Assembly: GCA_022360855.1 (NCBI GenBank)
Contig: JAKSBY010000290.1
Coordinates: forward strand, 1 to 43,582
From: Sphingomonadales bacterium
Lineage (GTDB): Bacteria; Pseudomonadota; Alphaproteobacteria; Sphingomonadales; JAKSBY01
Length of the DNA: 43,582 nt
Direction of reading: 5' to 3'
In this document: positions 1,840 through 26,085 of the stretch, one piece after another
How positions within the stretch are numbered: position 1 is the first letter of the stretch
Layout of the letters: the number at the start of each line of letters is the position of its first letter
Notes under the pieces: generated by a model
Database searches by the model: none
Told to the model about the DNA's origin: nothing
The model's input: the letters and a program-made list of their open reading frames with translations, nothing else
Made by a program: the position numbers and the translations under genes

Positions 1840-4800
1840 CTAGATGCTGCGCTCGACAAGCGGATTGACGGCCGCAAATCTGAAGGTGTTCTCTCCTACA
1901 TCTTGAGATTGGCTCTGGTCCAGATTTGAGGCGGATTGCGGCTCGAATGCCGCCATCGCCTGGATGAACCGCGCAAGTTCGCTCGACTGCATGGCCTCTT
2001 GAACATGGGCGCTCCGAGCTTCTCTGATGTCGATTTCGCTGAGGGCACCAACCGCCGCAAGCCCGGGCGACCTCCAGCCGTGCAACAGGTCGTCGACCAG
2101 TAGCGGCGTGTCAAATCCGAAACTATCCAGGCTTTGCGTTTCGTCGGCGATTGCCGTGGCGGGCTCCGCTGATGATGGGCTGCCGGCGTCCGCGCCGAGT
2201 TCGTTGCGCAAGAAGCGCAAGGCGACGTCGCCGACCTCACCGGTGGTACCGTCTTCGCGGGTGAAGTGGGACGTATTGACGACGACGTTGTCGATGGAGC
2301 CCGTAACGGTTTCGCCGGTCGGGACCGGGGTCAGGTCGATGGACGCGATGCCGCGATCGGCCAGGGATGTGAGCTCATCCGCCTGGCTGACGCCGTCCTG
2401 ATTGGCATCCTGCCAGACCTGAAATTCACCGAAGCGTTCGTCGCCCACGTCGAACACGCCGTCATGGTTGGTATCGAAGGCCGCAATGCCCTCCAGATCG
2501 GTCCTGGCGCCGGGCAGATCGCCGACGAAGGAGATTTCCGAGGCATCGTTGATGACGCCGTCGCCATTACGGTCGAGCGCCAGGAACCCGTCATCCGCGC
2601 CGGCCCAGCCGGTAAAATCGAGATCGCCGTCGCCGTCCATGTCGAAGGCGACGGTCGAGGTCGCCAGCGGGGTCAACTCCACCCCGTCGCCGTCGAGGTC
2701 GATGATCAAAGGAGGAACAAATCCAGTCAGCACAAATAATTCGTTTGTTGCTTCATCGAAATAAAAGCTCTCATGAACTGAAAACGACCAAGGAAACGAA
2801 GAAAATTTAGTCATTCTGAGATACTCAACATCACCAGCAACATTCGTTATACGCCTGGTCCAAGTCGTGGTGCCGCCAAGACCGTTCGGAACAATTTCAC
2901 CAACATAACGATACCCCACAGGCAAGCCATTGGAGCCATTGCCGATGATTGTGCCCGTATTCGGCAGGTTATCCATATCCAACAGAAACTCAAATTCAGG
3001 TACATCGACGACGTTTATGTCGAGTGTGTGTGGTGTCGACGACAATGATGGGTTCCCACCATCCGTTGCCTGAACCGTCAGCGTGTAACTTGTCTGGGTC
3101 TCGTAATCGAGGCCGGTGTTAATTGTAATCTCACCGGTCGAGCTGTTGATGCTAAAGGCGTTACCGTCGTTACCGGACAGGATCGAATAGGTCAGATCAC
3201 CATTCGGCCCTGTGTCGGGGTCTTCTCCATCCACCCTGGCAACAAAGGCGCCGAATTGAGGATTCTCGTCCATGGTTACGGACGTTATCGTGCCGTTGCT
3301 CTGATCCTTGAATCCTAGGATCACAGGCGCGGTATTAACCTCCTCGATCTTGATTTTGACGTCGGCGGTATCCTGCAGATAGCCGGAGAGATGTGAGGCG
3401 CCATTGAAATTGTCGCGCACGACGACTTCGTAATTGTAGAAGCCGCCCGCTGTCGATCCAAAGTCTAGCGCGCCGTTGACCTCGATGAGGCCGGTCGTGG
3501 CGTTGATCTTGAAGCGGCCGTCCGAAGACGTGCCGCTGATGGTGCTGCCATTCCAGAAGTAATAGCGCTTGGTGCCGAGGGTCCCCGTATCGACATCCGT
3601 CGCGGAGATCGAGCCGACGTCGTGTCCGACGCCAACAGAATCCGGAATGCCCGTCGGGCCGCCAAAATTGTAGAGCGTCGCACTCAGAACCGGCGCGTCG
3701 TTGACCTGGTTGACGGTGATGCCGCGCACCGCCGTGGCGGTGGAAAATGCCGAAGTGCCGCCGGTCGCGGTGATGTTGTAGGTGCCGCCGGCGGAGCCGA
3801 CCGACTGGTCCCAGGCACGGAAGGTAATGCCCGAATTGGTGCCGGAGTAGTTGGCGGCGGGAATGAAACGCACCTTGTCGTTGCTGTCCAACAGGCGTGC
3901 GCTGGAAGACGATACGCCGCCGAAATCAACCCAGCCGCTGCCGGCGTTATATTCCCAATGGCCGTTTGTGTTGTCGGCGCCGATAACCGCGATGGCCTTT
4001 TGCGGGGTTCCGTCGACATCGCTCACCGACGAGCTGCCGAGCAACGTCGATACGACGACGCCGCCATTGCCGGTCTCGTCTTCGTTGATGTCGGGAATCT
4101 GGGCGACATTACCGGCACTCAGCACCGGCGCGTCGTTGACGGCGTTGACCTGGACCGATGCGGTATCGGTGGCGGTTGAAAAGGCCGAGCCGCCGCCGCC
4201 CGACGACGCATCGACCCTGGTGCCGGCCGCGCCGGAGGTCTGATCCCAGGCTTTGAAGGTGACGCCGTTGGCAACCGTACCGTTCCAATTGGCGTTCGGC
4301 TTGAAGCGCAGGCTGTCATTGGGGCCGAGCAGCAGGGCGCTGGTCGACGAGACGGTGCCCACGGCGGTCCAGGCGCCGCCGCCGATGCGATACTCCCAGC
4401 TGCCATTGGCGGTGTCGACGGCGACGACGGCGATGGCTTCGGGCTCGGTGCCGCCATCGTCGTAGTCGGGGTCGTCGATGGCGCCGTTGGTCAGCATGGC
4501 GGCGATCGTGGTACCGCCGTTCGACGTGTTGTCCTCGTTGATGGCGCCGAGTGCGTGGCTGATCGCCGTATTCAGAACCGGCGCCTCGTTGGCGTCGGTA
4601 ACCGTCACCGTATAGGTCTGGGTGCTGGTGAACCCGCCGTTATCGGTCACGCGCACCTGGATCTGATGCGACGTGGCCGCCTCGAAATTGATGGCGGCGG
4701 CGTCGTTGACGGAGACGATACCGGTGGCCGCATCGATGCGGAAGCGCCCGCCGGCGTCGTCGACCAGCGTGTAGGTCAGCGTCGCTTCTTCGACCGTTGG

Positions 4801-7800
4801 TGGCGCCCAATAGGTCGTGAAGCCAGCTTCGGTTTCGTCGTAATAGTTGAAGAATCGCGGTGCGATCACATTGTCCGGCAGGCTCGAATCCCAACGGTAG
4901 TTAACGACATTGGCGATCTTTTGCCCCGTCACCGTATCGAATACCCCACCGAACTGGGCGCTGACGTCGTACCCGGTCGTGCTTCCCTGCGGCAGGACGT
5001 AGCCGACGACCTGGTACCAGCGATCGTTCTGCAGGAGGTTCCTCTGGACGTCGTCGCTCCAGGTAATGAAGTAGGGATTGGTGGTGTCGGCCCCCGTGGA
5101 TAGATTCTCTACATAGGCATTCGCGCCCGCCCCCTGATATTGCGCAGGCCCGAAATACAGGTAGTGCTTATTGAGATCGTGCTTCCTGAAATAGATCGTG
5201 TAGCGATAGGCCTTGGTGGGATCGATGGTGATGTCGCTTGTTCTCCAGAAGCCGCCGCCTGACTGGGCCGTGCCGCCGTCCTGGCCCGTCTCCAGCGCAG
5301 TAATCGTCGTGCCGTCCGGGCCAATGACATTGGCCCAACGGATCTCGTTAGTGTTGTTCGGACCCCAACCCGGCAGGGTCGGCGTGCCGGTCGAATACTG
5401 CCAGGCGCTGGTATCGACGAGATTTGTCTCATCGAAGTCCGGGTCCGACGCGGCCACAGTGCCAACATATGTACCGTTGGCAGCGGCTTCCGAGACGGAG
5501 CCGGAGAAGCTGTCCACCGACGGCGGTGCGTTGACCGAGACATTGAGCGTCTCCACGGACGTTGCCGGCGCGCCGCCGGAGGCCTCGGTGGCCCGCGCGG
5601 TGACGGTCAGGTCGAAGTCGGTGCCCGTGTTGTCCGCGACGGGCGTAATTGTCAGGCCCGTGAGGTCGGCGGGGCTGAGGCGCCACAGGCCACCGCCCTG
5701 ATCGACGCCCTTATTGAGCGTGGCGCCGGTCGGCACGCCGGCGATGTCGATTTCAAGCGATTCCGAGCCGTCGGTATCGGCCAAGCTCGACGTGATCGAA
5801 AGCGCGATTGCCGTGCCCTGATTGCCGGCTGCGTCGTTGACGGCGAGATTCGGTGCGTCGGCGACGGCGTCGACGGTGACGGTCAGGGTCAGTGTCGTCT
5901 CGAGGCCGCCGTCGTCGACGATCACATTAAACGTCTCGGACCCGCTGATCTGGGCCAGCGGCGCCAGCGTAATCCGCCGCGTATTGTCGTCCACGAACTC
6001 GCCGTTAATCACCGACGGGAAAAGCGTGCCGCTGGTTTCGGCGCGCACGGTCAGCGAGGCGTCGGGGGTCTTGATCTGGCCAGTGTCGGTGACGTCGAAC
6101 AACAGCTCCAGCGAGCCGTCTTCCGCCACGCGAACGTCCAGCGGATTGATGCCGGGGGTGGTGAGGACGATGCTTGGTGGATCGTTGATGTCCCAGGCCG
6201 TCTCCACCTCGGTGCGAATCGATGCCGGGATCTCGCTGACGCCGGTCGGCATATCGCCGTAGCCCTGCATGATCGAAAGAAGCGCCGGGATGTTGACGTC
6301 GGTCTTCGACTGCATGGAACCGGCGATAAACAGCTCCACCGAATAGTGCTGCTGCATGTTGCCGGCGACATCGAACATATTGAGGATGATGACCGATGAT
6401 GTGGTGTTCAGAACCGACGCCCGCAGCTCCGTGCCGGTGGCGTCATCGCGGGTAAAGGTCTTGGTGACGGGGTCGTAGTTGCCGCGCTCGAACCAGATAT
6501 TCAGATAGGAGATGTTGTCGCCATACGCGACCTGATCGGCGGAGCCGGTCGTATCGTAGTCGTTGATGACGTCTTGGCCGGTATTCAGGCCGGCATGGTA
6601 GGTGTCAGCCCCGGCGCCCCCGACCATGAAGTCGTTGCCTGCTTCGCCGTAAAGGTGATCACCGGCCGTGCCTGCTTCGAGAGTGTCGTCGCCGTCACCG
6701 CCCATCAGCGTATCCGGCGAGGCGCCACCGAACAGGTGGTCGTTGCCGGCCTCGCCATAGATCATGTCGCTGTCGCCCTCGCCATGCAGCGTGTCGTCGC
6801 CGTCGCCGCCATAGAGCGTGTCCTGACCGTCACCGCCGTAGATGGTGTCGTTGCCCGCACCGCCGATCAAGGTGTCGCCGCCGGCGCCGCCGGTGAGCGT
6901 GTCGGCTCCACCGCCGCCGTCCAGGGTTTCGGCTATCGTGCCGCCGGTGAGGCTGTCGGCGCCCGACGTGCCGATTACCTTTTCAATGTTGGCGAATGTG
7001 TCGCCTTGGGCGTCGCCGCCGGTGGCGGTATTGGCGGCCAGATCGACCGTTACCGCCGAGGCGGAAGCCGAGTAGTCCGCGGTGTCGAGTCCGGTGCCGC
7101 CATCCAGGCTATCCGCGCCGGCCCCACCGATGAGAATGTCGTCGCCGGCACCGCCCGCCAACGTATCGTTCTGGCCCTGGCCCATCAGGGTGTCGGCGCC
7201 GTCGCCGCCCTGCAGATTGTCGTCGCCTCCGCCGCCATAGAGAAGGTCGACGCCGGCCCCGCCTTCCAGGACATCGTTGTCGGCGTTGCCATTCAGCGTA
7301 TCGTCGCCCGCCCCGCCGCGGAGCGTATCGGCGCCATCGCCGCCCGACAGATCGTCATTGCCGAAACCGCCCTCCAAGAGGTCGGCGCCGGCCAAGCCCG
7401 ACAGGATATCATTGCCGTCATTGCCGAAGATATGGTCGACGCCCTGTGCGCCGGTCAGCGTATCGTTGCCCGAACCGCCATTAAGCACGTCAATCTCGTC
7501 ATTAATGGTGACGGTGATCGGCTGGTTGAAGACGAATCCGGTGCCGTTGTTGTCGGTGGCCGTGACGGTCAGGGCGATCGATGTATCGCCGGCTTCATAG
7601 TCGAGCGAAGAGCCCGCCTTCAGCTTCAGTACACCGGCCGATACCTCGAAGCGGTTGTCGCCAGAGACGGACCAGACGTGCTGGCCGTAGGCGCTGGTAA
7701 TATCGTCCTCGTCTGTAACCTGGAAGGTCGCCACCGTGCCGCCGCTGGCAAGATGCTCGCCGATAATCAGCGTGTCCGAAGTTGTGATCGCGCTCGGCGC

Positions 7801-10800
7801 CTCGTTGATATCGTTGACCGTGATCGCGTAATTCTGTTCGACCCACGCGCCTGCGACGTCTGTCACGCGAATGATCACCGAATGGCTGTCCGCGATTTCA
7901 TGGTTCAGACTGGCGCCGGCCTTAACCGTCACCTGCCCCGAATTCGGGTCGATTTGGAAAAAGCCGGATGGATCGGATTGCAGCGAGAATGTCAGGGAAT
8001 CGCCAATGTCGGGATCGCTTGCCGTGGCCGTGCCAACGACGGTGCCGGCCGCGGAGTTTTCGTCGACCGCGCCCGAGAAGGCCAGCGATTCCGGCGTATC
8101 GTTGGTATTCGCAACATTGATCGAGAAGGTCGTCGTTGCCGAACTCTTGCCGTCCGAAGCGAAGACTTTCAGGTCGACCGTTCCGACATCGTCGTTAAGC
8201 GGGGTGCCGGAAAAGGTCTGCGTGGCGGTGTTGAACTGCAGCCAGAAATTGACCGGTATCGGCGCGCCGCTTGCGAAAGTCGCCGAATAGCTTAGCGGGT
8301 CGTTCTCCGGATCGCTGAATGTAGCGGCTGGCACCTGGAAGGAAAAAAGGCTGTCTTCGGTCGCAGCCTGGTTGGCGATGGTCTGCGCGACGACCGGGGG
8401 CTCGTTGGTAACGCTCGAAAGCGGATCCCGGGTCTGGTCGGCAAACTGCAGAAACTCGATATTGTCGAGGGTGTCCTCACCATCGTCACCGTCCGTTAAA
8501 TCGGTATCGGCGACCGTGAAGAGGCCCGTGACCTCGTCGATGGAGATCGCATAGCCTGCGAAAAGCCCGTTATAGACCGCGGTGTCGGAACCGTCTCCGC
8601 CGTCAATCGTGTCGTTGCCGCCACGTCCCTCGAGCAGGTTGTCGCCGGTATTGCCGGTAATCGTGTCGTTCTGATCGCTGCCGACCACATTCTCGACGCT
8701 GGTCAACGTATCGGTGCCGCGGCCCATGGCCGTCCCGGCTGTCAGATCGATTGTCCAGGCGACCGCGCTGTTGGAGGCGTCGACGGTATCCGAGCCGGTG
8801 CCGCCATCGATGGAATCGTTTGCTGAAGACGTCTCCTCGAGATCGAAGCGGTCGTCCCCACCGCCGCCGATCAAGGTGTCGGTCCCGTCGCCGCCGATCA
8901 GCTCGTCGGCGCCGTCGCCTCCGGTCAGCGTGTCGTTGCCGCCGAAGCCAAAAATCCGGTGGCCACCGGTCAAGCCGGCGGCAGACAGCTGGTCGTCTCC
9001 CGGCGTGCCGACCAGAATGACCCGATCCTCGTAGAGTTCGTTGACTTGCCAGGATGCGGCAATCGCCGCATCAACCTCGGCCTGGGTCGGTTGCACGGCC
9101 GATACGACCGGGAGTATCCCGAAGGCCACATCGATGTCGAATCGACTCAGGCTGTGGGTCGGCGTTATCACGCGGCGGACACGATTGTCGGCCTCGTCGA
9201 ACCAGCCCGAGACCGTGACGCTGGCGCCGCCGCCGGCCACGTCGATCTTCAGGTCTTGCCCGACCCGGGAGAAGGTCAGGTCTTCAAATGCGACCGAGTT
9301 ATCGAAGACGATATCATCGAGCCCGCCATCGTTGGTGAGGGTGTCGTTGCCCGAGGTCGACGTGAACAGGTAGGTGTCGTCTCCCTTGCCGCCATCTATG
9401 GTGTCATCGCCCGGGCCGCCGTCGAGGATGTCGCCGGCTGCACCGCCTATCAGCTGATCATCGCCGGCTCCACCGACCAACACATCCGGATCACGGTTGG
9501 ACAGCAGGCTCGCCATATGGGTATCGTCCGTTACCCAGCCCGTTGTCGGCAAAGGCGAGCCAAACGCATTGCCCGTCGAGTCCAACGTGAAAAATACACC
9601 TGGCCCAAGGGTCTGCACCAAATCGAAGTCAACCACCCTGCCTTCTGCGGGGTTGGCATCGCCACTAACCTCGGCAGCCGTCAGCGTCCGGTCCCAAATC
9701 TTGGCGCGGTAATACTCGCCGCTGAAGCTCTCAGCAGGATCGTAGCCGCCTCCGTAGCTATCCTGGTCTTGCCCCAAAACCAGTATGGTAGAACCGGACA
9801 GGCTATAACCAGTACGGAAACCGGTCGTTTCGTAAACAAGCTGGCCGTTGTCATAGATTTTCAGATCGCCGGCCGTGTTATCCCAGCTGACGGTCAGTCT
9901 GTGCAGTTCGCCGGCGGTTAACGATACCCCGGTGGAAATTTGAGTGCCACCAATCGTGACATTCAAGTTGTCGGGCTGAGAAATCAGAATCTCGTCCGGA
10001 TTTGAGGGACTCGCCAATGACAGAATGGCCCGGTCACCGCTCATACTGGCCGGCACAATTTCCATCTCAACGGTGAATGCCGCGCTCGGTGAAGCGGGAA
10101 GAGTTAGAGTTTTCAGGCCGGACAAGTTGGACGTACCGTCCATCGCCATGCCGAAAGCCAGCGTCGAGGTTTCCTCGTATTCGGCGATGAGCAGATCGTC
10201 GCCAGCGCCGCCAATGAGCTGATCTGAGCCGATTCCCCCGACCAGCTTATCGTCACCTGCGCCGCCGTCGAGGACGTCGTTCCCGGCCCCGCCTTCGAGC
10301 ACTTCGACGTTGGCAGATGTTCCGCCTTCGCCGCCTGAGATGTTATCGTCGCCCTCACCGCCCAGAAGCGTATCCGTGCCGGCATCGCCGATAAGAACAT
10401 CGTCGCCGAAGCTGCCGGTCAGAGCATCGTCGCCTTTGTTGCCTTTCAGGACGTTGTCGTTGGAGTCGCCCGTAATAGTATCGGCAGAATCGGAGCCCGT
10501 AACATTCTCGATGCCCGAAAGCACATCGCCCGCCGCGTCGCCGCCAGCCTGGGCGCCCGCCGAGCTCAGATTGACCGTAATACCGGAATCCGAGCCATTG
10601 TAGATCGCCGTATCAATGCCCGTGCCGCCGGTCAGCGTGTCGGCGCCTGCTCCGCCCGATAGCTTGTCGTCGCCGTCGCCGCCGTCGAGCGTGTCATCGC
10701 CGGCAAGTCCGGAGAGCGTATCGTCGCCGTCGCCGCCGTTGAGCGTATCGGCCGCCGCGCCGCCGACCAGAAAATCGTCGTTCGCGGTTCCTGCGCCGGA

Positions 10801-13800: not shown

Positions 13801-16800
13801 CGAGTCCCACGACGCGACGATCTGGTGGCGCTCGCCGTCGAGAAGATTGTAGGGCACGTTGATGTAGTGCTGGCTGGCATCCGGGCCGATGGCGATGCGG
13901 ATGTGATCGTCCTGCGGGTTGAAATAGGCCTCGTTGCTGGTGTGGCCGTCCAGGGCGTAGCTGAACAGCGAATGCTCGCCGACCAAGCCGTCGTTAAACT
14001 CGAAGTCGAGCGCGAAAGTATACTGTGTCGTCGGCGCGTTGGTGATGTTGTCGAGCTGCACATGCACCTGGCCGTCCATCCGGAGGTAAGTCTCGGTGAG
14101 CGTTGTGCTGAGCGCTTCGCCGTTGATGGTCAGCCCGGTGGCGTCGACGATACGGTCCACGCCGCCCACGACGGACGGGTCGGCCGCGTAAGCCAGCGAG
14201 ATCTCGTCATTGCCGGCGGTCCCCTCGATCAGGTCCTTGGCCGTGGAATCGATGGTATCGCGGACGACCTGGGTCAGCCCGTTCTTGTCGGTAAGGATTA
14301 CCGCCCGCTCGTTGCCGACCCGGGTGAAGGTGGCGGTGGACGCGGCGGCCGCGTCGTTGTCGCCCAGCCAATGTTCGAAGCCGCCATACCAGTCCCCCTC
14401 GTGGCGCTTCAATAGGCCGAGTTCCACGGCGCGCTGCAACGTAATCACCCAGCCGGCGGTAAACGCCGAATCCGGCTCGGCCGCGATCAGTGCGTTGATC
14501 GAGGCGGAATTCTGCAGATAGAGGGCGTAGTCGCTTGCCGTCGTCATGTTGCCGAGCAGCGTCTCCATCTCGAAGCCGCCCGGCCCGCCGGCCATCTCGA
14601 GCGTGTTGTAGAAGGCGCGCTTGGCATAAACGTCGCCGCCGGCGATCTTCATGCTGTCCAGGCCCAAAAAGGCGCCGTAGTTGATCAGGTCGCCTGCCGC
14701 GCCCTCCTGGTCGCCGTCGAAAAGCTTGTCCAGGTCCGATTTGCCGAAGTCTGACGTCACCTCGTCACGATAGGTGAAGTCGGATTTGCGCATGCCAAAG
14801 GCGCCGCCCTGCACGTCAAAACCGTTGAGAAGATCGCCGCCGACGGCCGCCAGAACGCCGTTATAGGCATCCGCCGCCGACTGCGCGAGGCCACGCGCCG
14901 CATCTTCGCTGCCCCCCTTGCGCGCGAACACATTGCCGACGGCAAACTCGCCGGTCACCGGATTCCACATCACCTCCGCCGACGACCGCGGTGTTCCGCC
15001 GAAAGCGGAGCCGATCAGCCCGCCGAGGATCTGGCCGAGGAAAGCGCCAACGAGAATTCCAACCGGGCCGCCAAAGGCGGAAAGCGCAAATGACTGAAAG
15101 AGGGTGGCTGAGCCACCAGCGGCGATTGCGGCTGTGCCTGCCGTGGCGGCGCTGGATATTATGCCCGCGGCAGCGATACTTCCGAGGCTGGATCCGATCG
15201 CGCTGCCGACCTGCCCACCGATCGTGTCGAACGAAATGACCTCCGAGGCCAGCCTGGAGCCAACATAGGACGCGACGATGTTCCCAAATTGGAGATCTCC
15301 AATGTCGGCAAAGATATCAGTGCCGGGTGTGGTTATGTTCGCCAAGATCTGGTCGATGACCGCGCCACCGGTCGAGTTTAGAACCTCCCCGACGACGCCG
15401 TTGATTCCCAACGCGTCGAGAAGCTCGGCGGTCAAGAACGCGGACACCGCGCCGGTGCCCGCCGATTTGAGGTTGTTTAGAAGCTCGACATCAATGTCGC
15501 TAAGCGCCAGTTGAGTGTGCGTTTGGGTGCCGCGGCCTGAGCCAAAGATCTGAATATCGAGCAATTCGCCAAGGTTGTGGGCCAGTGTTGACAAACCGGC
15601 GGTCGCACCGATTTGCGCAAATAGATTGTCTCCGGCCAGCCTTCGGCCGACTGTCGAGCCAATGGCAGAACCGGCCTGATTGAATGTGATTGGTGTGCCT
15701 GAGACGCTGATAGAGGTCTCGTCCGGGCCGCCGGTAGTGGACTTGATTGTTACGGCCAAATCACCGTCATGATGTGTCTCGAAAAAGGTATCGACCGGCC
15801 CTCCCTCAGTCGAAGCTTCCCAGGTTGCCGTCCGCACGACTTCGGCGTCCTCGCCTTCGCCGACGATCGCCTGGAATCCAATCAGATTGCCGTTCGCATC
15901 ATTGATGGAGACGATGCGGCCTTCTTGAGCAGCGAAGGCGCGGAATTTGTCGGATCGCCAAGTGGTTGGTATAAGAGACTGCTCTGCTTCTGGAACCGTC
16001 GCTAGTATGTGGTCCCGCGGTGCGACGCTTGGATACCAACCGGAAAGGTTAGCTTTTGTAAGGTCCGGTAGGCTCTCCGGTATTCCATCTACAGTCTCTC
16101 TGTTGAAAAGAGTGATGGCATCACGTAGGTCTTCCGGCGGCGTTGTCAGATCGACATCGAATTCGATCACAGAACCACCATCCCACATGGCGACGCCGTT
16201 GATATGTGGCACACCGTTTTCGTCGCGGAAGAAGCTGGATGAACGAAGAGCGCCAATCGGCTCCTCATTTTCGCTGAAACCAGGTGTTTCCAGTACAGTT
16301 CTTGCGATCAATGCGCCTGACTGATCGATAGCACTTTCGACAACTTGACTTCCGCCCTGCAGAGAGCTCGATTTTTCTCGTGTAAACGTAGTAGAATCGT
16401 CGAAAATCCAAGAATAAGGGGATACTGGCGTTTGTCCGGTATTGTTCTCAGTTCGATTGAGCGCATCACCAATATTCTTGATCGCGTGTTCGTCTGTGTT
16501 GATGCCCGGAATTAGCAGGCTTGGATTCTCTAGTTCAACTATGCTGGAAAAGCGTGTTATCTCCCCTGGAAGAGACTGAACGCGCGGAACCGGGTCGTTC
16601 GCTCCAACAATCACCGAATGTATCGGAGGCAGCGACCCGCCAACCACATAGTCCTCGATTAAGGCTACGCGAGCGTCAAGTGGCTCAAGCGGATCGCCTA
16701 CCGGATCGAAATTAAACCCAAATGAATTGACTCCTTCAACTCCGGAAACAAGAGCGTTGACATTACGTTCAGGATCAATGGCGAAGTGCGCCAACAAGAA

Positions 16801-17280: not shown

Positions 17281-18056
17281 ACTTCTCCGCCAGAGTTAGG
17301 GGTCTCTGTCTGCTCGTTCGGCGCGAATGGTTGGATTAGCCAGTCGTTTGTTAGGCGCCCGTCTTCGTATGCCGATCTGCCGCAACTTTTTACTTCTTGC
17401 AGTTGCACCGGCAGATTACGTGAGAGGATTCCGTTCAGTCCTGTTGGCCAGAGCCTGAACTCATACGATGAGGAAATTGTTCGATCATCTGCCAGGGAAA
17501 AGATTCTGTAGCCAAGCTTCGTGACTCTTAAAAATGGCCTTTGAATAGTTCGAACATTCTCGATAGCGAAAGCCGAACTGAGTTCATAGGAAACTGATTT
17601 TTTAAGGCAATATTCGAAGGCTTTTTCTGGATGCGATTTGAAATCATCAAATGAGTTTCGTATCTCTTTGTCTCTACAGAATTCACTTTCAGCATCAACT
17701 GAACTATATCTGCTAATATAAGCTGTCTTGTTTGACAGCAGGGAATTCAAATACTCGTAATTTCGTTGATCGGGTAGAACCTCTAACGAAAGAACCTCCA
17801 CAAATCTGACAGCCCCTGATGACAAAACAGTCATGCACCGGAACGTGCACTCAGCTGGCAGATAGTCAAAGACAAGAACGGCGTCGGAACTAACGGAATC
17901 ATAGATGCGATCCCCGCTCTCATTTTTGCATTTGTAGTGGTAGTAAATTTGATTATGCGGATAGTCCCAATTTAGAAGCAGGAATAGCAGGAGAAGGTAT
18001 AACCACAGCCTCTTGCGGCTCCGGGCAGGCATTTCTTGTTTGGTAGGTTCCGCCAT
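17277..18056 (-). CDS. Low-GC, Cys-rich, N-terminally membrane-anchored or exported hypothetical protein; candidate immunity protein for the RTX lipase domain
   Basis: 259-aa ORF with a basic N-region followed by LWLYLLLLFLLL, and six cysteines. Its stop overlaps the RTX start. Hand count of 17581-17640 gives 21/60 G+C. Confidence 0.8.
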   Translation of the reverse strand: MAEPTKQEMPARSRKRLWLYLLLLFLLLNWDYPHNQIYYHYKCKNESGDRIYDSVSSDAVLVFDYLPAECTFRCMTVLSSGAVRFVEVLSLEVLPDQRNYEYLNSLLSNKTAYISRYSSVDAESEFCRDKEIRNSFDDFKSHPEKAFEYCLKKSVSYELSSAFAIENVRTIQRPFLRVTKLGYRIFSLADDRTISSSYEFRLWPTGLNGILSRNLPVQLQEVKSCGRSAYEDGRLTNDWLIQPFAPNEQTETPNSGGEV

Positions 18057-18127
18057 CGCCTACCGACGCCACCATTTTTGAGTGGATATCTGCGACGAAG
18101 ATGCTGATAAATCGATGTAGGCGTTAA

Positions 18128-18365
18128 CCCTTGCCCGCCAAAGCGGCGAAGGGTGGGCTCTGTGTCTTTCCCCCATGTTTCCCTCTCGTCCCCCAAATTC
18201 AGCTTCCCCGATCTGGCGCCGAGAGTGCCAGGCGGGTTGGGCCGGTTCGTTACCATGGCGGGTGCTTGGCCCACCAAAGCGGTGGAGTGAAGGTTCGAAC
18301 TTCGGGTATGTCAAAGGGCAATTTTGTGGCTTTTTCGTGCCGGTCGCGGGCCGGTCCGCGACCGG
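18128..18365 (-). promoter_or_regulatory. Leader/promoter region of the immunity-RTX operon, with two related hairpins and a long palindrome
   Basis: Minus-strand TTGACA at 18314-18309 with TTCACT 17 bp downstream. Hairpins on the + strand are CCACC-AAAGC-GGTGG (18271-18285) and CGCC-AAAGC-GGCG (18136-18148). A near-perfect 26-bp palindrome lies at 18340-18365. Confidence 0.5.
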
Positions 18366-18643
18366 GTGTGTTTTCGCTATGGTTGTAAAGGCTTAGGTGC
18401 ATTTTCTTCGCCTCTTTCACGCGCCCGATGTGCGCAATTGTCGCGGATTTTTGAGGGGCGATTTGGCGCGACCGTTCAAGAAGCGGAGCCGGACCTGTGG
18501 CGACTCGGAAGTCCAGGCGTGCAGATTCGCACGCGCCGGACTTGGATCGGGGACGGCCTCGGCCGCCACGCGACGCCTCGGCCGGCATCGGCGACTGACT
18601 ATGGGGACAAAGCGCCGAAAGGTGGCGGCGCGGCCGGGGCCGT

Positions 18644-19258
18644 CTAGGCGTCGACGCCTTTCAGGGTCAGGACGTCGCGTTTGCCGGTTGCCGGGTCGGT
18701 CTTGTGGAAGCGGAAGGTCTGGCCCTTGAAGGCGGTCTGCATGAGGTCGGCCAGCATCGCCTCGACCATTTTGTTGTCGGGCGTGGCGAAGGGGGCGATC
18801 AGGTCCACAAGCCACAGATTCCCTTGGGTTTTTCCCGCCTGCGCGCCGTCCGCGCCGCCATCGCCGCCGCCGAGCGTGTCCTGGAGATGGGCGACCCCGA
18901 GGCCGTCGGCGCGCCATTCGTCGGGCCGCAGGCGCCCGGCGCCGGCGTTCAGCTTGGCCTCCGCTTCGGGGCTGAGCCAGGCCCACAGCGCCAGGCCGAC
19001 CGGCGTCGTCTCGCCGTGGAACACGCGGTACTGCTCCAACAGCAAGGGCGGCATGACCAGCCATTCGAGGTCGGCCAGCGCGAAATGCTTATGGGTCGGC
19101 GATTGGGTAAGAAGCCAGACGATCTCGCCCAGCATATGGCTCACCGTCGGCCGCCTTTTGGCCGCCTCGTCGGTCTTTTTCGGGTCGAAGACCGGCGCGT
19201 CGGCCGCGCCCGATGCCGTGGCACCATCGGCGCCGTTTTGTGCTGTTTCTTTCGCCAT
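18644..19258 (-). CDS. hlyC: RTX toxin-activating lysine acyltransferase (HlyC/CyaC/RtxC family)
   Basis: LGEIVWLLTQSPTHKHF (SPxH catalytic motif), PPLLLEQYRVF, PVGLALWAWLS, DEW...GNLWLVDLIAPF. Confidence 0.92.
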   Translation of the reverse strand: MAKETAQNGADGATASGAADAPVFDPKKTDEAAKRRPTVSHMLGEIVWLLTQSPTHKHFALADLEWLVMPPLLLEQYRVFHGETTPVGLALWAWLSPEAEAKLNAGAGRLRPDEWRADGLGVAHLQDTLGGGDGGADGAQAGKTQGNLWLVDLIAPFATPDNKMVEAMLADLMQTAFKGQTFRFHKTDPATGKRDVLTLKGVDA

Positions 19259-19321
19259 GCCGTGCGACCCCCGTTTGTCGAGCTACCCGTAATTGGTGTG
19301 TGGCGCCCGGCTCGGCGCCGC

Positions 19322-19849
19322 CTAGCGGGCCGCGCCCGGCTCCGAGAACCGCGCCTCGAGGAGCGCGAGCGCCGGACCATAGTCCTGCCGCGCCGCGCGC
19401 TCAAGCCATTTGCGCGCCTTGCGGTCGCTTCGCTTGACCCCGCGGCCCTCCAGATAGAGCCGGCCGAGCGCATATTGCGCGGCGGCCAGCCCGGGGCGGG
19501 CGGGGCCGGTGGTGACCGGGATCACCCGGCCATAGGTCTCGCTGCCGACCGGCGGCGAATAGACATAGGTGGTGCCGCCGACCGTCTCCGCCGCCGCCCG
19601 GTACCAGGCGACGGCGCGGGCCGGGTCGGCGGCGATGCCGTCGCCGGTCTCGTGGGCCCGGGCGAGCTCGTATTGCGCGAGCTTGCTGCCGCCGCAGGCC
19701 TGCGTCTTCAGCTCGGCCAGGGCGCCCTTGTCGCCATGTCCGAGGCAAGCCGCCTGATTGCTCAAGCCCGTTGTACAGGCAGACAGCGCGAGCACGGCAA
19801 ACAGGCAACACACGACCCTGAACCACGAAACCGCATTCCCCGCATTCAT
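19322..19849 (-). CDS. Sel1-repeat lipoprotein
   Basis: Lipobox LALSAC and two Sel1 repeats (AQYELARAHETGDGIAADPARAVAWYRAAA; AQYALGRLYLEGRGVKRSDRKARKWLERAARQ). Starts 2 bp after the hlyD stop. Confidence 0.85.
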   Translation of the reverse strand: MNAGNAVSWFRVVCCLFAVLALSACTTGLSNQAACLGHGDKGALAELKTQACGGSKLAQYELARAHETGDGIAADPARAVAWYRAAAETVGGTTYVYSPPVGSETYGRVIPVTTGPARPGLAAAQYALGRLYLEGRGVKRSDRKARKWLERAARQDYGPALALLEARFSEPGAAR

Positions 19850-19851
19850 GT

Positions 19852-21249
19852 CTAGCGCTCCCTCAAAGACTCGTCCTTGTAGCGCAGCAAGGGCGAGAGG
19901 ATGAACTCGATCAGCCGGCGCTTGCCGGTTTTGATCTCGGCGGTTGCGACCATGCCGGGTGCGATGTTCACGTCCTTGTCGTTGACCGCAATCGTAGAGC
20001 GTTCAAGGCTGACACGCGCCTGGTAGACGAGACCGAGCTTCTCGTCGGCGATGGCGTCCTGCGACAAATCCTCGAGCGTGCCGGGGAGCGTGCCGTATTT
20101 GGTGAAGGGGAAGGCCTCGAGCTTGACCTCCACTTCGTCGCCTATATGGACGAAGCCGATGTCCTTGTTCAGCACCTGTGCCTCGACCACCAAATCGCCC
20201 TCGCCGGGCACGATGACCATCAATGGCTCGGCCGGCTGAACGATGCCGCCGATGGTGTGGATGGCGAGCTGCTGCACGGTACCGTCGACCGGTGCAACGA
20301 GCTGCTGCAGCACATTGCGCTGGGCCGCCTTCGTCAGCTCCTGGGTCTGCGCCATCGCTGCGGTCTCGGCCTCCGCCAGTTCCGACAACGCAGTGCCGCG
20401 GAACTCTTGCGTGGTCTGTTCGCTCTGCTGGTCGATGCCGCTGATCGCGGCCGTCATCCGCACGCGCTGCTCGGTCTGGATTTCGAGCTGCTTTTGACTG
20501 TCGATCAGACGTTCCAGCAATTCGAGATACAGGAGCCGGGGCGACAGGCCCTTTTCGGTCAGCTCCTTGCGCGCCGCCACCTGTTCCTCGATCAGCGGCA
20601 GGGTCTTTTTGAGCCGATCGATTTCCTGGTCGACCGCGGCCAGATCGGCCTCCCGCTCGGCGCGCTGCTGGGCAAGCGAGCCCAGGGCCGCCTCATATTC
20701 GCGGATCTGGCTGTCGATCAGGCGCTCTTCCATGGCGACAATCGCCGGGTCGGCGTCGGCAGGTGGGTCGAATGCGTGGGCGCCGGTCTCGACGTAGGCC
20801 AGCAGTGCATTCGCCCTGGCCGACGTCATCCGCGACATCAGGAGTGCCGCCTCGACCTGCGCGACATCGGCGCCGGAAACGGTGGGGTCGAGCTCGATCA
20901 GCACGTCGCCGGCCGCGACACGTTGTCCATCTGTTACTTTGATTGCGCGAACGACGCCGATCTCCAAAGGCTGGATTATCTTGACCCGCTCTTTCGGGAT
21001 GATGCGACCCTGCGCGGTAGCCACCACGTCGACATGTCCGAAATAGGACCACAACATAGCGGCGACGAAAAACGCTATGATCAGCCACAGCGTCGTTCGG
21101 CCGACGGGCGAGGCCGGCTTTTCCAGAATCTCCAACGCTGCCGGCAGAAAGTCGACTTCTTCATATTTCTTGGCGCTCTTACGGCGCTCGGATTCGAGCC
21201 GCCAGGACTCCCGCCAAACGTCCAGGTGGCTGCGCATGCCCTCAAACAT
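19852..21249 (-). CDS. hlyD: T1SS membrane fusion protein (HlyD family)
   Basis: FLPAALEILEKP, a single TM segment, VKIIQPLEIGVVRAIKVTDGQRV, a coiled coil, KLEAFPFTKYG, AEIKTGKRRLIEFILSPL. The probable start is ATG 21249 overlapping the hlyB stop; the ORF track extends to 21279. Confidence 0.95.
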   Translation of the reverse strand: MFEGMRSHLDVWRESWRLESERRKSAKKYEEVDFLPAALEILEKPASPVGRTTLWLIIAFFVAAMLWSYFGHVDVVATAQGRIIPKERVKIIQPLEIGVVRAIKVTDGQRVAAGDVLIELDPTVSGADVAQVEAALLMSRMTSARANALLAYVETGAHAFDPPADADPAIVAMEERLIDSQIREYEAALGSLAQQRAEREADLAAVDQEIDRLKKTLPLIEEQVAARKELTEKGLSPRLLYLELLERLIDSQKQLEIQTEQRVRMTAAISGIDQQSEQTTQEFRGTALSELAEAETAAMAQTQELTKAAQRNVLQQLVAPVDGTVQQLAIHTIGGIVQPAEPLMVIVPGEGDLVVEAQVLNKDIGFVHIGDEVEVKLEAFPFTKYGTLPGTLEDLSQDAIADEKLGLVYQARVSLERSTIAVNDKDVNIAPGMVATAEIKTGKRRLIEFILSPLLRYKDESLRER

Positions 21250-23404
21250 GAGCCGTCTGCTTTCGCCAAAGCTCTGCATAGCGCCCTTCGGCGGCGATGA
21301 GCTCGTCGTGGGTGCCGTCTTCGGTCAGCATGCCGCGCTCGATCGTCACGATGCGGTGCGCCTGGCGAAGCGCCGACAGCCGGTGCGCGATGATGATCAC
21401 GGTGCGGCCCTGCGCCATCGCCTTCAGATTGTTCTGGATGACCTCCTCGGATTCGGCGTCCAGCGCGCTTGTCGCTTCATCGAAAATCAGGATTCGCGGA
21501 TTGGTGATCAGGGCTCGGGCGATGGCGATACGCTGGCGCTGACCACCGGATAAATTGGCGCCACGCTCGTCGATCTGCGTATCGTATCCTTCTGGCAGTT
21601 GGAGGATAAACTCGTGCGCGCCGGCCAGTTGCGCGGCCGCCATCACCTGCTGCATATCGCGGGTCGGATCGGTCAACGCTATGTTCTCGCGCATCGAGCG
21701 GTTGAACAGGATATTCTCCTGCAGAACTACGCCGACCTGGCGCCGTAGCCACGCAGGATCGACAAGAGCGAGATCGACACCATCGACCAAAACGCGGCCC
21801 GATTCCGGCACATAGAGCCGTTGAACCAGCTTGGCCAATGTCGACTTTCCCGATCCCGAGGGCCCGACGATGCCGAGGATCTGTCCCGGCGGAATCTCAA
21901 GCGACACGCGGCGCAGGACTTCCGGGCCGTCGGTGCTATAGCGAAACGTTACATTGTCAAATTCGATCGCGCCGCCGATCTTGGGGAGGTTGGTGCGGTT
22001 GGGATTGTATTGCGGCTCGGTGGGCGAATTGAGGATGTCGCCCAGTCGCTGCACGGAGATTCGTACCTGCTGAAAATCCTGCCACAGCTGCGCCAGACGC
22101 AATACCGGCTGGCTAACCCGCGACGCCAGCATATTGAAAGCGACAAGCTGGCCAACCGTCAGTTCGCCACTGATGACCAGCTTGGCACCGAAATAGAGAA
22201 TCAGGGCGATCACGACCTTGTTGATGAATTGAACCGATTGAGATCCCACATTGCCCAGCATGTTGGCTCTGAAGCTGGTGCTGACATAGCCGGCGAGTTG
22301 CTGCTCCCAGCGCTGCTGCATCTGCGGCTCAACCGCCATCGCTTTGAGCGTCTCCACGCCCGTTACGCTTTCCACCAGAAACGCCTGGTTCTCGGCGCCG
22401 CGCTGGAATTTCTCATCCAGCCGGGCGCGTAGCGGAGGGGTGATCGCCCAGGAGATCGCAACGTAAAGCGGTAGTGAGATCAATACGATCAGAAGCAACG
22501 TCGGGCTATACAGATACATCACGCCCAAAAAGACGAAGGTGAAGAACAGGTCGATAAAAAGCGTGACCGACGAAGAGGTGAGGAAGTTGCGAATATTCTC
22601 CAGCTCCCGAACCCGGGCAACGGAATCGCCCACCCGGCGGCTTTCGAAGTAGCTCAGCGGAAGCGCCAACAGATGCCGGAAAAGCTTCGCCCCGAGCTCC
22701 ACGTCGACGCGGTTTGTCGTATGCGAGAATACGTAGGTTCTGAGCCCTCCCATCACGACCTCGAACAGAGAAATTGCAATGAGTCCGACAATCATGACAT
22801 CGAGGGTCGTAAGCCCCTGATGCACGAGGACCTTGTCGATCACCACCTGAAAAAACAGCGGTGTCATCAAGGCGAAGAGCTGCAGGAAAAAGGATGCGGC
22901 AAGTACCTCGCCCAGGAGGCCGCGATACTTGACGAGCGCCGGTATGAACCACGTTACGTCGAATTTTCGATCGCCGCCGGCGAGGCGGGAACGCGTTGTC
23001 ACCAATATGACCTGTCCCGTCCACTCGGAGTCGAGCTCCGAGAAAGTCAGTTTTCGCGCTGCGGGTTCGCCGGGGGATTGGATGAGAACGTGGTTGTCGC
23101 CCACCTGACCCAAGATAAAAAACCGCCCGTCGCGCGCCCTGGCGATTGCGGGAAGCGGAAGCTTGCCGAGCCGGTCGGTTCTTGCTCGTGTGATCTTGCT
23201 CCGCGCGCCAAGCTGTTTTGCCAGCCGCATCAGGTCTTCAGGACCGAAAACGGCGTCCCCCTTGCCAAGCTGATGCCTTAGCTGCGCGGGCTCGGCCGGA
23301 ATGCGCAGATATTTGAGAAGGAGCACAAGGCAACTGAGTCCGGAATCCTGCTCCGCTGCGGATTCGTCCCCGGCGTTTGCAGTTCCCCCATCCGACAACG
23401 TCAT
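21242..23404 (-). CDS. hlyB: T1SS ABC transporter (HlyB family, with an N-terminal C39-like domain)
   Basis: Walker A GPSGSGKST, signature LSGGQRQR, Walker B ILIFDEATSALD, FFQVVIDKVLVH. The N-terminal QDSGL has no catalytic Cys, as expected for a C39-like domain. Confidence 0.96.
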   Translation of the reverse strand: MTLSDGGTANAGDESAAEQDSGLSCLVLLLKYLRIPAEPAQLRHQLGKGDAVFGPEDLMRLAKQLGARSKITRARTDRLGKLPLPAIARARDGRFFILGQVGDNHVLIQSPGEPAARKLTFSELDSEWTGQVILVTTRSRLAGGDRKFDVTWFIPALVKYRGLLGEVLAASFFLQLFALMTPLFFQVVIDKVLVHQGLTTLDVMIVGLIAISLFEVVMGGLRTYVFSHTTNRVDVELGAKLFRHLLALPLSYFESRRVGDSVARVRELENIRNFLTSSSVTLFIDLFFTFVFLGVMYLYSPTLLLIVLISLPLYVAISWAITPPLRARLDEKFQRGAENQAFLVESVTGVETLKAMAVEPQMQQRWEQQLAGYVSTSFRANMLGNVGSQSVQFINKVVIALILYFGAKLVISGELTVGQLVAFNMLASRVSQPVLRLAQLWQDFQQVRISVQRLGDILNSPTEPQYNPNRTNLPKIGGAIEFDNVTFRYSTDGPEVLRRVSLEIPPGQILGIVGPSGSGKSTLAKLVQRLYVPESGRVLVDGVDLALVDPAWLRRQVGVVLQENILFNRSMRENIALTDPTRDMQQVMAAAQLAGAHEFILQLPEGYDTQIDERGANLSGGQRQRIAIARALITNPRILIFDEATSALDAESEEVIQNNLKAMAQGRTVIIIAHRLSALRQAHRIVTIERGMLTEDGTHDELIAAEGRYAELWRKQTAHV

Positions 23405-24218: not shown

Positions 24219-25124
24219 CTAGCTCGTATCTCTGAGAAGAGAGATGCCCTTCAGGAATGCCTTATCCGCCTCGACCGAGACGGCCTGCACATTTTGTTCG
24301 CCGAGCGCTGCGACGTAGCGGTGGGTCAGCGCTTCGTTGCCGACAAGGATGACATCGTCGACCGTTCCGAGAGCTGCCGTAACGGCCATTATCTCGCGGC
24401 CGATCAGCATGCCCGAAAGGTAGGATGCGCGCGAAAGGCAGTGCAGGTCGTCCAGCAGCACGCTGGCGCGGATGGAGAACAGCTTGTTGAGCAACCCTGC
24501 TTTCGAGCGTCCAGCCTCGGTCCCCTGCATAAAGCTCGTCTGGTCGAACTTTTCGTCCTCGATAAGCGAGGAGATGGAGCTTTCCCTGCGGATCAGCGCG
24601 AAAATCTCCCCGGTCATGAACGTTGTCAGCGAGGCGATGGCGCCTGTTTCGACAATGCACCACTTGCTGTGCGTGCCGGGCAGACAAACAAGGGCCGTAT
24701 CCAGGCCGAGAGCGGCCAGTGCTCCGAAGACCTGCACCTCCTCGCCCCGCATCACGTCCAGACCGCCGAACATGTTGGGGCCGCTGACGCCGGGTACGAT
24801 GCGGATAGTGAGCTCGCCGTCATTGTCGATCGTCACCGGGTTATGCGCCAAGCTATCGGCCGAGACCGGACACGGCATATAGTCCGTCTCCTGCCATCCG
24901 TTGCGGCTCCCGATCATGCCGCTCATGATGATCGGCATGGTCCCATGCTCTGCGAGCCACCGGCCGCAATTGGCTTCGAGGACTTGGAGAAACGACTTGT
25001 TTCCCGTCATCAGGACGCCGTCATCGGTACTGATGCGCGCCAGCGACGTGCCCTCGTCACCTATCAGGAACGCCCGGAAGGCACTGGAACCCCAATCGAT
25101 GGCGATGAAAGAGGCCATCGTCAT
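24219..25124 (-). CDS. dgoK: 2-dehydro-3-deoxygalactonokinase
   Basis: IAIDWGSSAFRA, SGMIGSRNGWQE, DVMRGEEVQ, LPGTHSKW, TFMTGEIF, YLSGMLIGRE. ATG 25124 overlaps the SDR stop (TGATG); the ORF track start at 25313 is too long. Confidence 0.93.
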   Translation of the reverse strand: MTMASFIAIDWGSSAFRAFLIGDEGTSLARISTDDGVLMTGNKSFLQVLEANCGRWLAEHGTMPIIMSGMIGSRNGWQETDYMPCPVSADSLAHNPVTIDNDGELTIRIVPGVSGPNMFGGLDVMRGEEVQVFGALAALGLDTALVCLPGTHSKWCIVETGAIASLTTFMTGEIFALIRRESSISSLIEDEKFDQTSFMQGTEAGRSKAGLLNKLFSIRASVLLDDLHCLSRASYLSGMLIGREIMAVTAALGTVDDVILVGNEALTHRYVAALGEQNVQAVSVEADKAFLKGISLLRDTS

Positions 25125-26001: not shown

Positions 26002-26085
26002 ACAATAAACCTCAAAAGTAAAGCGGCGACAACCGCCTTTTTGAGTCCCGTCTTCCGGCTTCGCAACACTGCCCAAGGGGTCGAT

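Follow-up and report, generated by a model that had tools for sequence, protein, structure and literature searches.

The 43,582-nucleotide contig JAKSBY010000290.1 of a Sphingomonadales bacterium (assembly GCA_022360855.1), hereafter referred to as the window, carries six co-directional genes on its minus strand. Running from position 23404 to position 1840, they encode in this order the type I secretion system (T1SS) components HlyB and HlyD, a Sel1-repeat protein, an HlyC-family acyltransferase, a 259-residue protein (ORF259) and a giant RTX protein. The locus raises the question of what a protein of adhesin size does when its gene stands beside that of a toxin-activating acyltransferase and its N-terminal region resembles an enzyme. 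An original prediction made on this DNA had read the locus as a polymorphic toxin system with an N-terminal lipase and an upstream immunity gene, and all the gene content that it named (hlyB, hlyD, Sel1, hlyC, a low-GC open reading frame (ORF) and a 5146-residue RTX protein) was found on the minus strand. The comparative analysis reported here makes it likely, at the level of sequence, that the locus is a polymorphic toxin system built on a T1SS/RTX chassis, combining an exchangeable N-terminal toxin with an upstream immunity gene.

Covariation of giant protein heads and abutting genes

The 46 database homologues of the giant protein align to it only from query residues 325-634 onwards and carry 0-640 residues of unrelated sequence before that point; P0009 is the sole homologue that matches the N-terminal region, or head (query residues 2-286, 24% identity). 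Grouping the heads of 95 non-redundant loci by BLAST thresholds and single linkage produced 44 N-terminal clusters, 28 of them singletons. Of 50 locus pairs whose conserved module, which follows the head, is 60% or more identical, 44 have unrelated heads. Closely related pairs become similar 10-28 residues ahead of the first motif of this module. In its sharpness, as judged from these alignments, the head/module junction resembles the demarcation motifs known from other polymorphic toxins.

With ORFs called by a longest-ORF rule in high-GC DNA, 89 of 101 loci have an ORF on the same strand whose end lies no more than 100 nt from the giant gene's start and often overlaps it. The 84 non-redundant abutting ORFs fall into 74 clusters when grouped in the same way as the heads. 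Among 3486 locus pairs, similar abutting ORFs were observed in 11, all of which also have similar heads, and similarity confined to the ORF was observed in none. Label shuffles yielded a mean of 0.22 and a maximum of 3 co-similar pairs, with none of 5000 shuffles reaching 11, a count that ignores kinship and, since kin share features, is not to be read as a probability. The comparison covers abutting ORFs only, with Sel1-like parts masked; a count including all upstream ORFs returned 104 'ORF-only' pairs, caused by a conserved Sel1-like gene. Co-similar pairs are found at module identities of only 45-64% (L084/L107, L105/L132, L073/L093, L102/L113, L108/L128, L034/L061 and L057/L062), yet other pairs with closer modules, L097/L099 (76%) and L037/L038 (69%), differ in both head and ORF. 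Covariation of a variable N-terminus with the gene upstream, over an otherwise conserved locus, was the test named by the original prediction, and at the level of the family its outcome was the predicted one. The polarity that had been proposed, inverted relative to CdiA and Rhs, is likewise borne out, with the putative toxin N-terminal and the ORF upstream in all 101 loci; the classical C-terminal layout was not encountered.

Head and abutting ORF also share a distinctive base composition. In 89 of 95 loci, the head has a lower GC than the module, and the GC of both head and abutting ORF lies below that of hlyB/hlyD in 44 of 44, showing that the low GC noted earlier for the ORF upstream of the window's giant gene is a general property of heads and abutting ORFs in the family and not a peculiarity of the window. 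A lipobox or an N-terminal hydrophobic run was detected in 41 of the 84 abutting ORFs, as against none of the 84 giant N-termini, by a crude export-signal rule that misses ORF259 (score of 1.79 versus a cut-off of 2.0). For the head type found in L042, L043 and L045, the abutting ORFs have no such signal and are present in one to three tandem copies, L045 carrying three tandem paralogues. In L044 (13650-16289 of G109:C2), an 880-residue ORF located upstream of the putative immunity/toxin pair comprises a different head and the first ~200 residues of the module, and looks like an orphan head displaced by cassette replacement.

Known conflict domains in heads and abutting genes

Several members of the family carry domains that are known from bacterial conflict systems. 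In L001, from a Hyphomicrobiales metagenome-assembled genome, an AHH nuclease domain was identified at giant protein residues 33-129 (E 3.8e-10), and the abutting ORF directly upstream is an Imm11 protein (E 2.3e-19), a family that Zhang et al. 2012 (PMC3482391) list in a table among the immunity partners of Tox-AHH. A second AHH-like head, in L082, also adjoins an Imm11-like ORF. Pfam matches among the 95 heads comprise PT-HINT (3), Hom_end_hint (4), AHH (2) and Lipase_3 (1), and those among the 84 abutting ORFs comprise Imm11 (5) and FGE-sulfatase (2); the window's own pair of head and ORF259 contains no toxin or immunity domain catalogued in Pfam. A jackhmmer search started from the L001 Imm11 alone did not recover the other Imm11-like ORFs of the family, and a three-sequence Imm11 hidden Markov model matches L082, L038, L084 and L107. 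In L032, a HINT domain at residues 277-428 lies between an extreme N-terminal domain and the module, and cleavage at the N-terminus of the HINT itself would free the head.

Two further arrangements were observed among these loci. In L038, a lipase-type head adjoins a lipoprotein gene of its own, and an Imm11 gene (3473-4222, minus strand) one gene beyond, on the upstream side, represents a candidate orphan immunity gene. The abutting ORF of L046 (7220-8050), like that of one other locus, encodes a lipoprotein with an FGE-sulfatase (formylglycine-generating-enzyme-like) domain (E 4.9e-42), a candidate for an unusual immunity fold.

The conserved module and distribution of the family

Comparison of the homologues identifies the giant protein as a member of an alphaproteobacterial family that is defined by a module of 520 residues and a C-proximal domain. 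The module spans residues 511-1030 (14191-15750, minus strand), includes a glycine zipper and is 38-53% identical to its homologues. Its 46 protein homologues are giants of 3096-6215 residues, and the named carriers among them are Sphingosinicella, Allosphingosinicella, Altererythrobacter, Sphingobium, Sphingomonas and Hyphomonadaceae. The module was present in 20 of 400 other genomes of the window's order, corresponding to 18 of 96 genera, and a tblastn search against 72,556 plasmids identified it in six records, labelled Sphingobium, Roseibium, Martelella, Paracoccus, Sinorhizobium and Dysgonomonadaceae. The records for Dysgonomonadaceae bacterium zrk40 (246192 bp) and Martelella lutilitoris (246197 bp) give identical match statistics and stem from the same cold-seep source, and one of the two labels is probably wrong. 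A scan of metagenomes with a nine-sequence module alignment as query identified at least 80 loci, many of which are fragments; with a single module protein as query, a search of genome contigs returned one locus only (L001).

The module had no match in Pfam, NCBIfam or PDB sequences, either within a search of residues 1-1000 or as a module profile (E up to 1). It starts with the motif GxxLGSxLGRxLAG, and its further motifs are FDTIGGQxGSAxGS, a zipper ending in GGLIGSxFGGTPRSGADV, xKGGSKxAA, GNYGMRK, IAGGDxYxKRA and EPDSAFxAGWxITLxRAxELGLxKRHxSDWYGGF. A Gly-rich stretch within the module (residues 608-762; 14995-15459, minus strand) is the strongest and the sole extended hydrophobic stretch of the protein, with seven isolated 19-mer windows above the cut-off elsewhere. 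It ends in GPVGILVGAFLGQILGGLIGSAFGG, where a zipper of six glycines with a period of four occupies residues 737-761. Two conserved lysines of the module, K788 in 'RKGGS' (codon 14917-14919) and K887, are candidate acylation sites. Both are equally conserved in loci with upstream and with downstream hlyC, and neither is therefore singled out. In L046 (6742-17407 of G125:C18), two consecutive hlyC/variable-region/module units were observed, with frames of only 1281 and 1121 residues; these may be tandem short forms or broken copies.

Linkage to HlyC and type I secretion genes

The HlyC homologue of the window, a toxin-activating lysine acyltransferase homologue of 204 residues (18644-19258, minus strand; PF02794, E 1.6e-28), aligns to ApxC (4whn) and keeps the SPxH and W-x-x-D-x-IAPF stretches, which we take to hold the catalytic His and Asp. 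Compared to ApxC, it has a Gly/Asp/Ala-rich insertion of ~30 residues at residues ~118-146, between aligned blocks. With the window HlyC as query, 10 of the first 20 loci proved to have HlyC on the upstream side of the giant gene. In all five genomes examined that lack an upstream HlyC, the contig of the giant gene also encodes a HlyC above the Pfam cut-off, immediately beyond the giant gene's 3' end, a position derived from coordinates and frame lengths. The two orders also occur on plasmids, with hlyC downstream of the giant gene in the Sphingobium plasmid and upstream of it in the Roseibium plasmid. In addition, among the 56 loci whose upstream sequence extends to 3.5 kb or more, 42 have hlyB or hlyD upstream on the same strand. 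In the loci examined, the giant gene is constantly accompanied by HlyC, which lies either upstream of it or directly downstream.

The statement in the original prediction that giant RTX proteins normally lack an acyltransferase overlooks the MARTX toxins, which are encoded with rtxC (PMC3034196). A link between HlyC-type enzymes and antibacterial proteins has also been described: the HlyC homologue CdiC lipidates the antibacterial class IV CdiA, helping it to engage the target outer membrane (PMC8510554), which sets a precedent for the acylation of an antibacterial filament.

Integrity of the N-terminal fusion

The foregoing presumes that head and module are translated as one protein. It could be argued that the first 510-562 codons of the giant frame are a separate gene, or the product of a chimeric assembly, and that the true start lies at residue 563. 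The gene call stored for this contig (P0002) begins precisely there, leaving out the lipase head; the coding sequence annotated on the Sphingobium plasmid (L052, 14339-16267) begins 267 nt inside the module; and GC changes abruptly at the head/module junction. Against this, the giant frame runs through 5146 codons without a stop, an in-frame N-terminal extension of 150-770 residues is present in 101 of 104 related loci, including single-contig genomes and complete plasmids, and the RefSeq annotation of Roseibium calls the full-length form. Furthermore, a public-run contig from a second study bridges positions 15427-16016, across the head/module junction, and one public-run contig, which may be from the source sample itself, covers 14800-19300. 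The head-module fusion is not an assembly artefact, and the notion of a separate or chimeric N-terminus is barely credible.

Annotations that start inside the module leave the low-GC putative toxin heads missing from the corresponding protein records. At least two annotations do so, and the variable part of the family may be under-represented in protein databases (15594-17280 in the window; L052). The public runs in which the stretch occurs are coral-reef and marine metagenomes, and no RNA runs are listed among them. The variant from the second study has +1 and -1 indels ten bases apart (18194 and 18204) in the spacer that separates hlyC from ORF259, a single extra base close to the end of hlyC (18639), and substitutions spread across ORF259 and the head.

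The head and ORF259 of the window

A search with the N-terminal 520 residues of the giant protein returned one weak match among 1.84 billion representatives. Within the family, this head groups with those of L044, L038, L060/L097 and P0049. Its variable, putative toxin domain covers residues 1-~300 (16381-17280, minus strand) and contains a GHSGG motif at residues 151-155, with Ser153 at 16822-16824; H152, S153 and G155 are invariant in a six-sequence head alignment. A profile of the head searched against PDB matched 5gw8 (E 2.6e-4), feruloyl esterase A 2hl6 and 1usw (4e-4) and 3tgl (0.0099), all aligned at the nucleophile elbow, and hhalign of the head to the Lipase_3-positive head of L048 gave a probability of 97% (E 7e-11). 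These matches support a divergent class-3-lipase-like hydrolase of the alpha/beta fold in residues 1-~300, and at profile level, with both the PDB family-3 lipases and L048, the lipase assignment made originally holds. The linker or pre-module region that follows (residues 301-510; 15751-16380, minus strand) is common to few homologues only, P0010, P0018, P0025 and P0034 aligning from query residues 325-424.

ORF259 (17277-18056, minus strand; GC 0.45) matched no Pfam or NCBIfam family. It has two homologues, P0051 and P0052, at 60% and 47% identity, and a metagenome scan with the ORF259 alignment found no relative. Six cysteines are invariant in the three sequences, and an N-terminal RSRKR is followed by a hydrophobic run of 12-13 residues. 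Together, these features fit an exported, disulfide-bonded protein, as would be expected for immunity to a membrane-active lipase. ORF259 had been described as a membrane protein; the hydrophobic run is real, but its 12-13 residues after RSRKR are more suggestive of a signal peptide or anchor than of a full membrane helix.

The giant gene (1840-17280, minus strand) likely starts at the ATG at 17277, which overlaps the stop codon of ORF259 as TGATG and is preceded by GGAG 9-12 nt upstream, an arrangement that suggests translational coupling of the two genes. GC is 0.45-0.52 over ORF259 and the first ~510 giant codons, compared to 0.62-0.68 around them. On the basis of position, coupling, composition and the rule observed across the family, ORF259 is the probable immunity protein of the window's head.

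Proposed mode of action and alternative explanations

A mode of action can be put forward by analogy with CyaA (PMC10392135) and CdiA, from which we infer each of its steps, and with them that the head is toxic and ORF259 confers immunity, that acylation takes place and where, that the head is translocated as in CyaA and that the targets are bacteria. HlyC would acylate the glycine-zipper module in the cytoplasm, and HlyB/HlyD, together with an unlinked outer-membrane channel, would export the giant protein C-terminus first. Ca2+ would then fold the RTX/pentaxin/cadherin body outside the cell, and this body would bind a neighbouring cell. The acylated glycine-zipper module would insert in the target membrane and pass or present the N-terminal toxin, following HINT cleavage in some members. 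In the window, the head would act as a class-3-lipase-like hydrolase with Ser153, presumably attacking membrane lipids, and ORF259, exported to the periplasm or the membrane, would shield the producing cell and its kin. New toxin/immunity cassettes would be swapped in by recombination at the module start.

The interpretation of the locus as a polymorphic toxin system is supported by the covariation of heads and abutting ORFs, by the AHH/Imm11, PT-HINT and Lipase_3 domains and by the HlyC linkage. A bolder version of it would be a 'reverse CdiA', a widespread alphaproteobacterial weapon in which an HlyC-acylated zipper module carries dozens of interchangeable heads (nucleases, lipases and many new folds) across the envelope of a rival bacterium, each head having its own upstream immunity gene. 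We advance this version tentatively, with its chances somewhat short of even. If it were true, the family would bring to light upwards of 40 toxin families and upwards of 70 immunity families, most of them without a known domain, and gene callers would often miss the heads because of their low GC.

A number of observations weigh against the polymorphic toxin interpretation. The head is not fully independent of the module, similar heads being found in 6 of 50 pairs with module identity of at least 60% versus 29 of 2285 pairs below 40%. In 61 pairs, heads are similar and the abutting ORFs have no detectable similarity, which makes the covariation one-directional at BLAST sensitivity, and 2 of the 11 co-similar pairs have 100% identical ORFs and hence probably come from the same organism. 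More than 85 of the 95 heads contain no recognised toxin domain. For the window, the sequence of the head alone had no Pfam match even at E 0.1, and its profile matches in PDB are weak (E 2.6e-4). The candidate Asp (GANDP) and His (TDEHAI) columns are kept in five full-length sequences, and the triad is assigned from these columns by eye. ORF259 showed no significant similarity to the abutting ORFs of the lipase-type loci L044, L038, L048 and L060. The module has no detectable homology to the pore-forming or acylated segments of RTX cytolysins, or to any solved structure, which leaves the CyaA-like translocation step as an analogy only. Finally, a T1SS substrate would also have to cross the outer membrane of a Gram-negative target.

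Other functions have been considered for a protein of this architecture. The heads might be effectors directed at protists, algae, coral or other hosts, as in toxins of the CyaA/MARTX kind, with the upstream ORFs serving only to guard the producer before export. The combination of enzyme head, hydrophobic segment, HlyC, RTX and T1SS parallels CyaA (PMC10392135), pentaxin and cadherin domains typically mediate attachment to eukaryotic surfaces, eukaryotic membranes are also open to lipases, and the runs with the stretch come from coral reefs and the sea. Co-varying protection genes, tandem immunity copies and AHH/Imm11 pairs are nonetheless a signature of conflict between bacteria (PMC3482391), and the export signals of about half of the abutting ORFs suit defence against an incoming toxin, not storage before export. 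We regard an anti-eukaryotic role of this kind as unlikely, while noting that the anti-eukaryotic and antibacterial readings are not mutually exclusive. It is improbable that the locus encodes an ordinary giant RTX adhesin or biofilm protein, with a variable N-terminus that anchors it, retains it or adds an enzyme, and an upstream ORF with an unrelated accessory function, for instance that of an anchor or a chaperone. The size of the protein and its RTX, cadherin, He_PIG and pentaxin content resemble those of T1SS adhesins, which retain their N-terminus at the surface of the producer, and most heads and abutting ORFs are devoid of a recognisable toxin or immunity domain. Such a protein would, however, hardly be expected to display AHH, pretoxin-HINT and lipase heads with Imm11 neighbours, 44 head clusters in 95 loci separated from the module by a sharp junction, low-GC cassettes, constant HlyC linkage and a conserved hydrophobic glycine-zipper module.

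The latter feature invites the suggestion that the module itself kills, as an acylated pore former resembling Caulobacter Cdz, and that the heads are accessory elements for receptor binding or for breaching the wall or membrane. The module is the most conserved part of the family and is always linked to HlyC, it contains the strongest and sole extended hydrophobic region and the six-glycine zipper, and Cdz, a glycine-zipper bacteriocin, is reportedly exported by a T1SS and accompanied by an immunity gene. Immunity to a conserved pore should itself be conserved, whereas the abutting ORFs of 84 loci split into 74 clusters and follow the head, not the module, and AHH heads paired with Imm11 would be toxins in their own right. 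A killing module with accessory heads is improbable, and a polymorphic toxin with an exchangeable head and a cognate upstream immunity gene remains the likely explanation for the locus.

Relation to known toxin and secretion systems

Taken as a whole, the sequence comparisons describe a system that is like CyaA in the order of its parts and like CdiA in its evolutionary logic, and that belongs to neither family. CyaA, served by CyaC in Bordetella, likewise comprises an N-terminal enzyme, a linker, a hydrophobic segment, a region served by an HlyC-type enzyme, RTX repeats and a C-terminal T1SS signal (PMC10392135), and is exported by HlyB/HlyD-type gene products. More generally, RTX repeats, linked HlyB/HlyD and a linked HlyC-family acyltransferase are shared with cytolysins of the HlyA/CyaA type. 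In contrast to CyaA, the giant protein is three times larger and contains pentaxin and cadherin domains, the head of the family is polymorphic and paired with a neighbouring immunity-like gene, and the likely targets are bacteria, not leukocytes. The head, hydrophobic and acylated segments of CyaA have no sequence homology to the giant protein: no match to a CyaA/HlyA pore domain was found in Pfam or NCBIfam for residues 1-1000, nor in PDB, which is presumed to hold CyaA 751-1706 (7USL). The CyaA-like head envisaged in the original prediction therefore stands as far as the order of parts is concerned, but homology to the hydrophobic and acylated segments of RTX cytolysins was not detected.

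The resemblance to CdiA/CdiB/CdiI, which is one of architecture, encompasses a giant exoprotein with a constant body, an exchangeable toxin end and a sharp demarcation motif, a cognate immunity gene abutting the toxin-coding end and low-GC cassettes. In class IV CdiA, an HlyC homologue lipidates the effector (PMC8510554), a step that the linked HlyC would parallel. The giant protein differs in leaving the cell by T1SS, whereas CdiA uses two-partner secretion, and in having RTX and cadherin repeats in place of FHA repeats. AHH, HINT and Imm11 domains, hypervariable ends, immunity neighbours and tandem or orphan immunity genes are all shared with the polymorphic toxins surveyed by Zhang et al. 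2012. The available portion of that survey (PMC3482391) lists routes through the type II, V, VI and VII secretion systems (T2SS, T5SS, T6SS and T7SS), PVC and TcdB/TcaC, with C-terminal toxins; T1SS is mentioned there solely in connection with the export of RTX toxins, and toxins at the N-terminus solely as a conjecture about PrsW fusions. Searches of the openly accessible literature, which leaves aside subscription journals and supplements, turned up no account of polymorphic toxins of the T1SS/RTX type that carry the toxin at the N-terminus.

The MARTX toxins (Vibrio RtxA/RtxC) are similar in exceeding 3500 residues, in their export by T1SS, in their linked HlyC-like rtxC and in their variable enzymatic effectors (PMC3034196). 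Their effectors are internal, unlike the heads described here, and are freed by a cysteine protease domain in the eukaryotic cytosol, and MARTX toxins have no immunity genes; a Pfam scan of residues 1-5146 returned no MARTX-type protease or other MARTX family. The variable, enzyme-like N-terminus of the giant protein speaks against a place among the T1SS adhesins of the LapA type, whose N-terminal retention module works with a LapG/LapD release system. Within the Alphaproteobacteria, the predicted T1SS-dependent antibacterial activity would be shared with Caulobacter CdzC/CdzD, which also feature a glycine zipper but are small and have no enzymatic head, and with RzcA of Rhizobium, which has a giant RTX body (439 kDa). 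None of the six module records among the 72,556 plasmids searched by tblastn comes from Rhizobium leguminosarum, RzcA itself not having been part of the comparison. Tle lipases of the T6SS pair with periplasmic Tli immunity proteins encoded alongside them, and as described they resemble the predicted cassette of the window in combining a GxSxG lipase toxin with an adjoining exported immunity protein; the delivery machine differs.

Should the polymorphic toxin interpretation prove correct, T1SS/RTX would join the known polymorphic toxin routes, with a new gene-order rule for finding such systems, and HlyC-type acyltransferases would gain a role outside animal pathogens. The action of giant RTX bacteriocins, a mechanism that a review describes as uncharacterised (PMC3034196), would become testable, and dozens of uncharacterised toxin and immunity families would be expected in marine and soil Alphaproteobacteria.

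Organization of the giant protein and its locus

The order of lipase, glycine zipper, RTX/pentaxin and cadherin regions originally assigned to the giant protein is present in its ORF. Downstream of the module, a first pentaxin-like domain occupies residues 1072-1234 (13579-14067, minus strand; PF00354, E 2.3e-21). RTX nonapeptide blocks with 52 GGxGxD cores extend over residues 1294-3554 (6601-13401, minus strand; PF00353, E 3e-85 and 1e-69), and are interspersed with HCBP_related, a second pentaxin (residues ~2375-2539), He_PIG (residues 2961-3057) and cadherin-like domains. Five cadherin domains are found in the C-terminal half of the protein, the best-scoring of which lies at residues 4667-4757 (3010-3282, minus strand; PF00028, E 6.8e-58).

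The C-proximal domain that helps to define the family is an Asp/Gly-rich region of ~170 residues (residues ~4853-5023; 2212-2724, minus strand), with 43-63% identity in 42 of the 46 homologues. It may correspond to PF26745, a family that the protein database lists for most homologues and that is absent from the local Pfam. The original prediction had placed an SPM-like module and a secretion signal in this part of the protein. No model matched the former, and the conserved C-proximal domain was all that was found there. The C-terminal tail (residues 5024-5146; 1843-2211, minus strand) is presumed to be the T1SS signal region from its position and the linked T1SS genes; no T1SS secretion-signal model matched it, and conservation among homologues stops at query residues ~207-300 of the last 330.

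At the opposite end of the locus, hlyB (21242-23404, minus strand) encodes a T1SS ABC permease/ATPase with a C39-like N-terminus (TIGR01846, 1069 bits; PF00664, PF00005 and PF03412). Its end is overlapped by hlyD (19852-21279, minus strand; TIGR01843, E 6e-124), which encodes the periplasmic adaptor, and no gene for the outer-membrane channel of the T1SS was found in the window. The spacer of 587 bp between hlyC and ORF259 (18057-18643) has no conserved ORF and no detected sigma-70-like promoter, and it is here that the drop in GC begins. No mobile-element genes were seen among the flank ORFs scanned, which form a galactoside-utilisation cluster beside the locus (25124-36646) with an SDR protein, a gluconolactonase, a GntR regulator, a GH36 alpha-galactosidase, a GH42 beta-galactosidase, an SSF transporter and a TonB-dependent receptor.

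The remaining gene of the locus (19322-19849, minus strand) encodes the Sel1-repeat protein, of 175 residues and with a lipobox-like N-terminus (LSAC; PF08238, E 1e-18). A gene of this type is kept in many loci, between hlyD and either hlyC or the variable cassette, and in L075, L083, L091 and L123 a Sel1 part is fused to the abutting ORF. A possible role for the Sel1 lipoprotein is that of an accessory in the outer membrane, serving either the T1SS or retention.

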